In this document: positions 24,565-25,858 of the stretch, piece after piece
Position numbering within the stretch: the first letter of the stretch is position 1
Layout: the number at the start of each line of letters is the position of its first letter
Assembly (NCBI RefSeq): GCF_002135375.1
Contig: NZ_NEGH01000007.1
Span: 2,907 to 42,906 of the forward strand
Origin: Acinetobacter sp. ANC 4558
GTDB taxonomy: Bacteria > Pseudomonadota > Gammaproteobacteria > Pseudomonadales > Moraxellaceae
Reading direction: 5' to 3'
Length of the DNA: 40,000 bases
Position numbers and translations under genes: made by a program
Notes under the pieces: generated by a model
Databases searched by the model: none
Seen by the model: only the letters and a program-made list of their open reading frames with translations
Told to the model about the DNA's origin: nothing

Positions 24565-25446
24565 ATGACAAAACATGAAGTTAATTTTGATTTTTACCAA
24601 TTAGTTTTTAGCTCTGGAAATAACTCAAGTGTAATCAATTGCTTTAATAAAATCATAAAAAATGAAGTTGAAGCTTTTGTTGATGTAAAGGACTATACGC
24701 GTGAATTATACAGATTGAGCTTCAATGAAACTGATAAATACTGGGCTGGTCAGTTTAGAAAATACAGAAAAAATCAACTTCCAGCATTTGCTCGACCTGG
24801 AGAAGATGAGATTGAATTGACTCTAGATGGTGATCAGGGAATTATTGAACGAAACTGTTTTATATTCTTCCCAATTAGAAATATTTTAATTTGGCAGCAT
24901 GATGCACACGCTAATAATCCTGAAAGGTTAGCTGATTTTTTATCAATCTTAAGTGCGGATAAAGTTGAAGTTGCTCCAATTTTAACAAAATCAGCATTAT
25001 TAAGATTAATGGATGGCAAAACAGAGGCTTTAAAATTCAAAATATCTGTTGCCAGGCCAACCGCCCCTAGTATGTATGATGAAAACAAATTTACAGCGGA
25101 TCTATTTTCTTTAATGAATAACTCAGGATCGGATTTGTTTAATTTAGTGGGCGGTGTTGATTTAAGATCTAAAGAATCGGGTGTTCTGGGTAGGTTTGTA
25201 AAAAGCGGTATAAGGACACTTGTGTCTTCTGGAGCTGCCAAAACAGCCAAGGTTCTAGTCTTAGAGAATGGAAAAAGAGAGTGGTTGGATTTAATTACTG
25301 ATAGGGTTAAAGCATCACGAGAACTTGAGTCAGGTAAAAAATCAATACCATTTTTAACTATGGTTGATATGATAAAATCAGTATACGATGAGAAGCTAGA
25401 GGTGTTAAATGAAATTCTTGGCAAGGAACAAGACACTCTTATTTAG
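24565..25446 (+). CDS. RexA-position soluble protein (293 aa), candidate sensor of a Rex-like exclusion pair
   Basis: It is co-oriented with cI, 60 nt downstream of it. It is soluble, and its size is close to lambda RexA. The patches RLADFL...DKVEVAPIL resemble RexA DLTDFL...ERVQIEPLM as I remember it. Confidence 0.5.
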   Translation: MTKHEVNFDFYQLVFSSGNNSSVINCFNKIIKNEVEAFVDVKDYTRELYRLSFNETDKYWAGQFRKYRKNQLPAFARPGEDEIELTLDGDQGIIERNCFIFFPIRNILIWQHDAHANNPERLADFLSILSADKVEVAPILTKSALLRLMDGKTEALKFKISVARPTAPSMYDENKFTADLFSLMNNSGSDLFNLVGGVDLRSKESGVLGRFVKSGIRTLVSSGAAKTAKVLVLENGKREWLDLITDRVKASRELESGKKSIPFLTMVDMIKSVYDEKLEVLNEILGKEQDTLI

Positions 25447-25858
25447 TTTTCTTATATCAGTAGTTGTCTGTGGCGTCTTAATCAACTATCAAGGTGTAAT
25501 TGTTGATTTTAAAGATGGCGGTCAAAATACACCTTACGAAATAGCAAAACTCATATCTAGTATAAGTGGGACTATTTTAGGTTTTTTACTTACAGCAGTT
25601 GCTATGTTAACAGCTGTTATGGATAGAAAATTAGTGGAAAACATGCGTAAAACAGGCCACTATAGAGTTTTTATTGTTGATTGTTTTATTAACTGTTTTT
25701 TACTTTTGTGGACCATGGTATTTGGAATTATTACTCTTTTTACAGTAAATCCTTATCTAAGCTATGTTTTTTATATAATGATATTTTTTTCAATTACTGC
25801 AATATTATTCTTAATAACTCAAGGCCATAGGTTTTTGTTAATTTTTACAAGAATATAA
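25409..25858 (+). CDS. RexB-position four-TM membrane protein (149 aa)
   Basis: GAGG SD upstream. Four hydrophobic helices (residues ~10-26, 49-70, 87-111, 117-137). LISSISGTILGFLLTAVAML..RKLVENMRKTGHY resembles RexB LSSYAGTMIAILIAALTFL..RRLAKIREYGY as I remember it. Confidence 0.55.
   Translation: MKFLARNKTLLFSFLISVVVCGVLINYQGVIVDFKDGGQNTPYEIAKLISSISGTILGFLLTAVAMLTAVMDRKLVENMRKTGHYRVFIVDCFINCFLLLWTMVFGIITLFTVNPYLSYVFYIMIFFSITAILFLITQGHRFLLIFTRI

Follow-up and report, generated by a model that had tools for sequence, protein, structure and literature searches.

A candidate RexAB-type exclusion pair, a DUF6731 protein and a four-helix membrane protein, in the immunity region of an Acinetobacter prophage

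RexAB of phage lambda is the oldest known abortive-infection system, the one behind Benzer's rII exclusion. Only five Rex-like systems have been described to 2026 (PMC12894663). In Pseudomonas putida, prophage P1 encodes RexABpp (PP_5643/PP_5644; Rosendahl et al., Sci Rep 2026), a cytoplasmic DNA-binding protein of RexA fold together with a four-transmembrane (4-TM) protein, which lies downstream of a Cro/CI-family repressor and is missed by standard tools; both genes are needed for phage defence, overexpression of RexA is toxic only with RexB, membrane permeabilisation is seen with RexB-dependent damage, and suppressors of the toxicity map to RexBpp (PMC12894663). Rex-like pairs are also described from mycobacteriophages, namely Sbash gp30/gp31, CarolAnn gp44/gp43 and Butters gp30/gp31. 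Here we have analysed a DNA stretch of 40,000 nucleotides (contig NZ_NEGH01000007.1, positions 2,907 to 42,906; the whole stretch is called the window below), which matches Acinetobacter sp. ANC 4558 at 100% protein identity (P0001), and within it two adjacent open reading frames (ORFs), ORF293 and ORF149, that follow the cI-type repressor gene of a prophage. The pair is a new, unannotated lineage of RexAB type, new in its sequence family and breadth, with a known architecture and presumed mechanism. Because of the homology of the second protein, the fold of the first, their pairing and their position, the pair probably acts as a two-gene prophage exclusion or abortive-infection system of Rex type. 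The two genes are:

24565-25446, plus strand: ORF293, DUF6731 protein, proposed RexA analogue (PF20505; AlphaFold2 model and Foldseek)
25409-25858, plus strand: ORF149, 4-TM protein, remote member of the RexB superfamily and proposed membrane effector (hydropathy, profiles)

ORF149 has four hydrophobic helices by hydropathy (residues 14-32, 52-70, 87-105 and 119-137), with which its AlphaFold2 model agrees, a basic N-terminus and five lysine or arginine residues in the loop between the second and third helix (TM2 and TM3). Lambda RexB has the same topology and likewise a basic N-terminus, and its loop also carries five such residues. By BLASTP, residues 49-117 of ORF149 align with RexB 46-113, co-linear over about 70 residues (27% identity, E 8e-4). 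An exhaustive profile search of 1.8 billion proteins recovered an ORF149 family of 305 representative clusters, typically 135-155 amino acids (aa) long, which makes it much more widely distributed than RexB with its 20 phage records. The Pfam RexB model was matched by 6 of the 118 family members, and of the ten members scanned in detail most had RexB as their best or sole Pfam match, always co-linear. The bridging protein P0155 passes the Pfam RexB gathering score (29.9 bits, cut-off 27) and matches the PADLOC RexB model (E 3.4e-7) as well as the PHROG RexB family; the same protein is found by the ORF149 profile with E 2.3e-9 across the 1.8 billion proteins and matches, with E 8e-15, phrog_8552, a group of unknown function that is the sole PHROG match of ORF149 itself. 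In the opposite direction, the profile built from 118 ORF149-family sequences scored five true RexB proteins (lambda, Klebsiella ST101-KPC2phi6.1, Hafnia yong1, an IMG/VR prophage and Salmonella MS2 LVA) at 15.5-18 bits, co-linear over positions 10-130. The controls, 1,000 global (composition-preserving) and 1,000 local (hydropathy-preserving) shuffles, did not exceed 12.1 bits, and for reversed sequences the maximum was -4.6. Similarly, a RexB hidden Markov model (HMM) gave 10 bits or more with 57 of the 118 family members, against none of the 118 when reversed and two of the 118 when locally shuffled, and hhalign of the ORF149 family with the RexB family returned E 7.7e-5 at a probability of 62%. 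TM2 and the adjoining part of the cytoplasmic loop form the common core (ORF149 SGTILGFLLTAVAMLTAVMDRKLVENMRKTGHY versus RexB AGTMIAILIAALTFLIGSRTRRLAKIREYGYM); this TM2-loop motif, which reads GT..GF...A...L....DR.L..NM.KTGHY in the ORF149 family, is the most conserved part of the family and is shared with lambda RexB along with the topology and the basic loop. At the level of profiles and transitive matches, ORF149 is a remote RexB homolog.

ORF293 belongs to Pfam family DUF6731 (PF20505), which it matches with 55.9 bits against a cut-off of 27, its residues 1-277 covering positions 1-290 of the 295 in the profile. PF20505 is found in its homologs as well. ORF293 also matches two PHROGs of unknown function, and nothing in NCBIfam or PADLOC. 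Its AlphaFold2 model (pLDDT 80.8, pTM 0.69) was made from an alignment of 22 sequences with homologs down to 28% identity, across which 22 columns are invariant. When the model was compared with 350,542 PDB chains by Foldseek, the top match was lambda RexA (8twq_B, E 4.2e-7, probability 1.00), the next were E. coli RdgC structures (2owl and 2owy, E 1e-5 to 1e-4), and below these came yeast Iml3 and human CENP-L and CENP-N. In humans, CENP-L and CENP-N correspond to IML3 and CHL4. The structural relatives reported for RexA are RdgC, IML3 and CHL4 (Adams et al. 2024; PMC11077077), so that the resemblance of the two lists provides an independent cross-check of the fold assignment. As modelled, ORF293 shares the RexA/RdgC fold: residues 1-149 hold seven strands and helices, 154-255 form an alpha/beta insert, and the C-terminal part has a long helix at 263-285. 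In RexA, a globular domain in two parts (residues 1-139 plus 248-279) is built around a dimerisation domain (143-234), and the predicted order of secondary structures in ORF293 fits this two-domain arrangement. The invariant basic residues R46, R65, K66, R68, R164 and R201 are compatible with DNA binding, as far as residue conservation can tell.

Residues 197-207 of ORF293 (window 25153-25185), V-D-L-R201-S-K203-E-S-G-V-L, resemble the RexA segment I-S-L-R219-A-K221-D-E-A-G-D-I-L. R201 is invariant across the DUF6731 alignment, and mutation of R219 and K221 abolishes DNA binding by RexA. No alignment method set the two R-x-K segments in register, and the resemblance is a lead only. Among the viral structure models of BFVD, the best match of ORF293 is a protein of the uncultured phage Siphoviridae sp. 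ctylc9 (E 2.4e-19, TM 0.78, 14% identity), and the further matches include phage "recombination-associated" proteins that are RdgC-like. The best BFVD matches of the ORF293 and ORF149 models both come from ctylc9 (A0A8S5S8L2 and A0A8S5S8H0, about 14% identity), which points to the existence of further, more diverged pairs of this kind.

The two genes were found together wherever the family was inspected. The DUF6731 gene is followed directly by an ORF149-family gene in 25 of 25 loci examined: 15 genome loci (three from Acinetobacter, two from Pseudomonas, and those of Enterobacter, Kosakonia, Rouxiella, Serratia, Limnobaculum, Stenotrophomonas, Thiodiazotropha, Halothiobacillus, Thiohalocapsa and Marinobacterium), phage AUS531phi, three metagenome contigs with DNA, and six loci of E. 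coli or the A. baumannii complex. Moreover, the genes of the RexB-like bridging proteins P0155, P0104, P0136 and P0119 each adjoin a PF20505 gene, so natural pairs of DUF6731 with a partner of Pfam-RexB grade do exist. Conservation of the two proteins extends across genera, and invariant residues persist even in homologs of about 25-30% identity. In the window, the reading frames of ORF293 and ORF149 share 38 nucleotides (nt), 25409-25446, and the identical 38-nt overlap is found in Acinetobacter, Pseudomonas, Enterobacter, Kosakonia and E. coli (besides the window, in loci L002, L005, L006, L008, L009, L046, L048 and L049-L051), its length being constant despite only about 30-35% protein identity. 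In lambda, by contrast, rexA and rexB are separated by a gap of 15 nt. Such a conserved overlap suggests translational coupling, and this would agree with what is known of Rex systems, which are sensitive to the ratio of their two proteins (PMC12894663).

The partner gene is easily overlooked. It is uncalled in the E. coli assembly GCA_032877715.1 (L047, 1319-1753) and in three assemblies of the A. baumannii complex (L049-L051, 5842-6291), and in AUS531phi it is annotated too short, with 118 aa against the 161 aa of the ORF and HMM match (L038, 4773-5258). These missing or shortened calls indicate that the RexB-like family is systematically under-annotated.

As to position, the window contains a prophage, in which the large terminase subunit (TerL), portal, capsid and replication protein O are encoded, and the pair lies in its immunity region. 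As in lambda, the genes for cI, a soluble protein of about 280-290 aa and a 4-TM protein of about 145 aa stand on one strand between OR and OL, with cro and cII divergent from them. The other features of the prophage and of its immunity region are:

6800-7984, minus strand: capsid
9271-10488, minus strand: portal
10655-12373, minus strand: TerL
21923-22777, minus strand: replication protein O
23130-23492, minus strand: cII-like helix-turn-helix (HTH) regulator of 120 aa, encoded second in the divergent lytic operon (weak HTH_31/MarR matches; homologous ORFs at the same position in L002)
23483-23674, minus strand: cro-like small HTH repressor of 63 aa, divergent from cI (HTH_3, E 9e-5)
23703-23716, 23725-23738 and 23754-23767, no strand assigned: OR-like operator cluster of three exact sites (exact palindrome search)
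23725 to 23697, minus strand: PR-like promoter, overlapping the OR-like cluster (11/12 consensus matches)
23800-24504, plus strand: cI-type repressor of 234 aa with N-terminal HTH and C-terminal S24 self-cleaving peptidase (Peptidase_S24, E 5e-19; HTH_26, E 1.5e-6)
24517-24533, plus strand: hairpin TTTGTGG-GGG-CCACAAA in the 60-nt spacer between cI and ORF293, without a T-run (read from the sequence; z +0.83)
25868-25893, plus strand: intrinsic terminator closing the cI-ORF293-ORF149 unit (stem-loop 25868-25886 plus T-run; 7-bp GC-rich stem)
25911-25938, plus strand: PL-like promoter, overlapping the operator at 25922 and directed into the downstream early operon
25922-25935 (one mismatch) and 25957-25970 (exact), no strand assigned: OL-like operators (palindrome search)

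The original prediction, which had been made from the letters of this DNA, had placed the two ORFs behind the cI-like repressor on the same strand and had recognised in the region the OR-cI-rexA-rexB-OL layout of lambda. The gene coordinates proved correct and the layout is indeed present, from cro and cII on the opposite strand through OR, cI, the two genes and the terminator to OL; the sizes it gave for lambda RexA (279 aa) and RexB (144 aa) were right as well. Exact ATTCA-N4-TGAAT palindromes (14 bp), which were said to bracket the block in two clusters, occur four times in the whole 40 kb, all of them flanking the cI-ORF293-ORF149 block, and all five operator-like sites fall in the two intergenic regions on either side of it. 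The GAGG Shine-Dalgarno sequence claimed for ORF149 is read directly at 25399-25402, 6 nt upstream of its ATG, as is the 38-nt overlap; AGGGGA precedes the ATG of ORF293. The terminator that had been called strong is real but moderate (-9.5 kcal/mol, z -2.2 against shuffles). The hairpin between cI and ORF293 is where it was reported and lacks a T-run, but it is no more stable than shuffled sequence, and we have rejected it as a regulatory element. No terminator-like site was predicted in this 60-nt spacer, which is consistent with read-through from cI. In the search for an internal promoter analogous to PLIT, promoter-like matches occurred at chance frequency (10 found, 12.7 expected). The repressor itself matches phrog_4, "transcriptional repressor" (E 3e-40).

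Some further observations concern the surroundings of the pair. The window has no ORF between the repressor and the DUF6731 gene; at this place A. guillouiae (L002, 4535-4837) and A. lwoffii (L003, 4481-4783) carry a conserved 100-aa ORF with no Pfam match, and L004 and L005 carry different small ORFs with N-termini resembling signal peptides. Inside ORF293 there is an antisense ORF of 200 aa with a GTG start (window 24834-25436, minus strand), almost certainly a shadow ORF cast by the conserved frame that codes for ORF293. At the end of the early-left operon stand an Ant/KilAC antirepressor gene (28511-29248, plus strand) and the gene of an AlpA-like small HTH protein (29248-29448). Host genes for outer-membrane porins of FadL type are found from 29996, and WS/DGAT also belongs to this host part, from about 30 kb on; neither an integrase nor a tRNA was seen at the right-hand end of the prophage within the window.

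The position behind a repressor is one of several that the pair occupies. It follows a repressor with HTH and S24 domains, on the same strand, in the window, in L002-L005 and in the Pseudomonas aeruginosa phage AUS531phi, and a Phage_CI_repr-type repressor lies upstream of it in L011 and L012 (Limnobaculum; further upstream in Serratia). In E. coli, Enterobacter, Kosakonia and Rouxiella the pair is flanked by Q-antiterminator/RusA and by the holin and runs on the opposite strand. On the E. coli metagenome contig L046 (742-3683), for example, it stands between the holin and Q-antiterminator/RusA/DUF968, and the same slot is used in L006, L008 and L010. This Q-to-lysis slot is the classic site of lysogeny-expressed accessory genes ("morons"), and in Stx phages the same lambdoid moron slot is occupied by the Stx toxins. 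A ParDE toxin-antitoxin pair was seen near the DUF6731 pair of Enterobacterales. In the A. baumannii complex, the pair sits in a small island beside cysS. Unlike lambda rexAB, the DUF6731 family is not confined to immunity regions but occurs also in the Q-to-lysis slot and in small islands. The module is mobile, prophage-associated and repeatedly recruited to positions that would be transcribed in lysogens, and its recurrence at repressor, moron and island positions supports an accessory, host-protecting role over a part in one particular switch.

Among the described systems other than lambda, RexABpp is similar in being a pair of a RexA-fold and a 4-TM protein downstream of a repressor in a prophage that standard tools do not recognise. 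Using the published primer sequences and an internal 20-mer, PP_5643 and PP_5644 were recovered from the IMG/VR contig L045, a KT2440 prophage (573-1565 and 1568-2134; the native start of RexApp is GTG, the expression primers have ATG). Neither PP_5643 (330 aa) nor PP_5644 (188 aa) has a Pfam match, and comparison with the DUF6731, ORF149, RexA and RexB profiles gave no HMM or hhalign signal in either direction; RexABpp thus differs in having no sequence relationship to ORF293 and ORF149. That the DUF6731 pair might itself be the RexABpp family was rejected, since neither the published primers fit the DUF6731 locus of P. putida nor are the recovered proteins related in sequence to ORF293 and ORF149; in fact, P. 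putida strains carry a separate DUF6731 pair too (L005). The two also differ on the membrane side, where HHpred does not connect PP_5644 with RexB, while ORF149 is connected with it through profile searches. For RexBpp, a pentamer has been proposed. Since RexApp, lambda Rex and the DUF6731 pair are mutually undetectable, there are at least three RexA-fold lineages in Proteobacteria. The mycobacteriophage pairs, which we compared by description only, are likewise two-gene exclusion systems expressed from a prophage, with a RexA-like and a 4-TM protein and in some cases an adjoining immunity repressor; they differ in their actinobacterial hosts and longer A proteins (337-372 aa), and Butters also in a reversed effector logic. 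An uncharacterised Sbash protein ranks fifth among the BFVD structural neighbours of ORF149, a match that is not significant. In the literature on RexB and Acinetobacter prophages, no title or abstract among the matches listed describes a Rex-like system in Acinetobacter.

Several results weigh against a Rex-type assignment. ORF293 differs from lambda RexA in belonging to another Pfam family and in having no detectable sequence similarity to it. None of the RexA models (Pfam PF15969, PADLOC PDLC02339 and phrog_12654) is matched by ORF293, while lambda RexA, as positive control, scores 327, 364 and 542 bits on the Pfam, PADLOC and PHROG models. BLASTP of ORF293 with lambda RexA gives a non-significant E of 21, and hhalign of the ORF293-family profile with five RexA proteins aligns residues 86-149 to 81-147 at a probability of 1.5% (E 0.03). 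Local, global and alternative hhalign alignments and HMM searches against the same five proteins yielded nothing significant, and the family profile did not find RexA among all PDB sequences. The link to RexA can therefore not be claimed at sequence level and is one of structure and context. It should be considered that the RexA and RexB reference profiles consist of five sequences each (61-100% identity), which limits the sensitivity of hhalign; a related-locus search with lambda RexA returned almost only identical lambda copies. The structural match has its own weakness, in that the Foldseek TM-scores of the ORF293 model with RexA are low (0.36-0.38, rmsd 17.6 A). The RexA crystal represents a closed conformation and AlphaFold predicts an open one (PMC11077077), and the closed state of 8TWQ plausibly depresses a rigid-body score. 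ORF149, unlike lambda RexB, remains below the RexB thresholds: it matches none of the RexB models (Pfam PF15968, PADLOC PDLC02340 and phrog_14878) and nothing in NCBIfam, where lambda RexB scores 202 bits on the PADLOC model, and taken alone it reaches a sub-threshold 9.0 bits on an HMM of the five true RexB proteins. Its model has no significant match in BFVD, with lambda RexB outside the top 50, and no RexB-like structure was found for comparison, so that structure neither supports nor refutes the link to RexB. No paper mentioning DUF6731 was found in the literature searched. Finally, lambda RexA has a RexB-independent role in the bistable switch between lysis and lysogeny (PMC11077077), and defence need not be the sole or main role of a pair of this kind.

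Set against these points, the reading of the original prediction, a diverged Rex-like pair, is largely supported by the layout, the RexA fold, the RexB profile link and the pairing of P0155 with DUF6731. Of its particulars, the four-helix topology of ORF149 agrees with both hydropathy and model, and the stretch of RexB that it had named as similar is the region aligned by BLASTP and hhalign. The patch it had named from RexA falls in the region that hhalign aligned, without reaching significance. The profile-to-profile comparison recovers the RexB family and not RexA, and in the structural comparison RexA and RdgC come first and second.

By analogy with the described systems, the pair would work as follows. 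ORF293 would be a cytoplasmic sensor of RexA/RdgC fold, probably dimeric and binding DNA non-specifically, and ORF149 a small 4-TM effector of the inner membrane, remotely homologous to RexB. In the lysogen, both genes would be co-transcribed with cI, and translation coupled through the overlap would set the ratio of the two proteins. Upon infection by another phage, a DNA-protein intermediate of replication or recombination may activate ORF293, which would in turn trigger ORF149, leading to loss of membrane potential or integrity; the growth of the cell would be arrested and the incoming phage would not multiply. Dimerisation, DNA binding, activation of the second protein by the first, membrane damage and anti-phage activity are here inferred for the pair from what is described for its counterparts.

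The alternative that survives best is that the pair mainly tunes the lysis-lysogeny switch of its own prophage, ORF293 binding DNA or repressors and so biasing towards lytic growth while ORF149 modulates host proteolysis or energetics. The RexB-independent switch role of lambda RexA (PMC11077077; bioRxiv 10.1101/2021.04.19.439022) speaks for it, as do the location of the pair inside the immunity region between the operator clusters and its recurrence beside three different repressor types. Yet in E. coli, Enterobacter, Kosakonia and Rouxiella the pair is far from the repressor, in the Q-to-lysis slot, in the A. baumannii complex it occupies the cysS-adjacent island, and its strict pairing in all the loci examined speaks for the membrane partner being an integral part of the function; we thus consider this alternative unlikely.

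Perhaps the roles are reversed, as described for the Rex-like Butters gp30/gp31 (PMC12894663), so that the cytosolic RexA-fold protein is toxic and the membrane protein sequesters it until infection. Sequence data do not fix which of the two partners is the effector. Nonetheless, it is ORF149 that is homologous to RexB, the effector of lambda, the peak of conservation lies in the TM2-loop motif of the membrane protein, which fits an active role, and ORF293 has no recognisable enzymatic or toxin domain in Pfam or NCBIfam, all of which makes the reversed arrangement quite improbable.

ORF293 could also be a phage recombination modulator of RdgC type whose membrane neighbour is functionally unrelated. 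RdgC (2OWL/2OWY) has a two-domain DNA-binding core fold like that of ORF293 and is its second-best structural match (E 1.4e-5), and the BFVD matches include the RdgC-like "recombination-associated" phage proteins mentioned above. However, RexA ranks above RdgC in Foldseek, and the two-helix tip of RdgC is absent from the ORF293 model, in which residues 68-94 are coil. RdgC is a stand-alone chromosomal gene product with a tip domain that closes a ring, no membrane partner and no prophage immunity context; the DUF6731 gene, in contrast, is invariably adjoined and usually overlapped by the membrane gene and stands at positions that would be expressed in lysogeny rather than in recombination modules. 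A pure RdgC-type role is for these reasons very improbable. That the ORFs are chance frames or functionless remnants of a decaying prophage is effectively refuted by their conservation across genera, their invariant residues and the maintained gene order and overlap.

With a Rex-type exclusion pair as the preferred reading, the wider question is that of the family. DUF6731 together with a 4-TM protein of ORF149 type could represent a large branch of the Rex superfamily that has so far gone unrecognised and is more widely distributed than canonical RexAB, and we regard the chances for and against this as evenly balanced. The same even judgement applies to the composition proposed for the branch, a conserved RexB-like effector joined to a RexA-fold sensor that is unrelated in sequence to RexA. 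Its members would be found in prophages of Acinetobacter, with the baumannii complex among them, and of E. coli, Pseudomonas, Serratia, Stenotrophomonas and sulfur-oxidising Gammaproteobacteria. The finding extends a known kind of system and is not a new principle. A Pfam domain of unknown function and its unannotated, often uncalled membrane partner gain a testable function, for which E. coli P0036 with its 144-aa partner (L046, 1645-2926) and the Pseudomonas aeruginosa phage AUS531phi are tractable instances, and the invariant residues of so diverse a family are concrete targets for mutagenesis. It also suggests that defence annotation of the PADLOC type misses a common prophage module in clinically relevant hosts. 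If the branch is real, its diverse alignment would be the first in which the functional core of RexB, namely the TM2 motif given above, and the coupling of the two proteins could be identified, and Rex systems would be revealed as modular and ancient.

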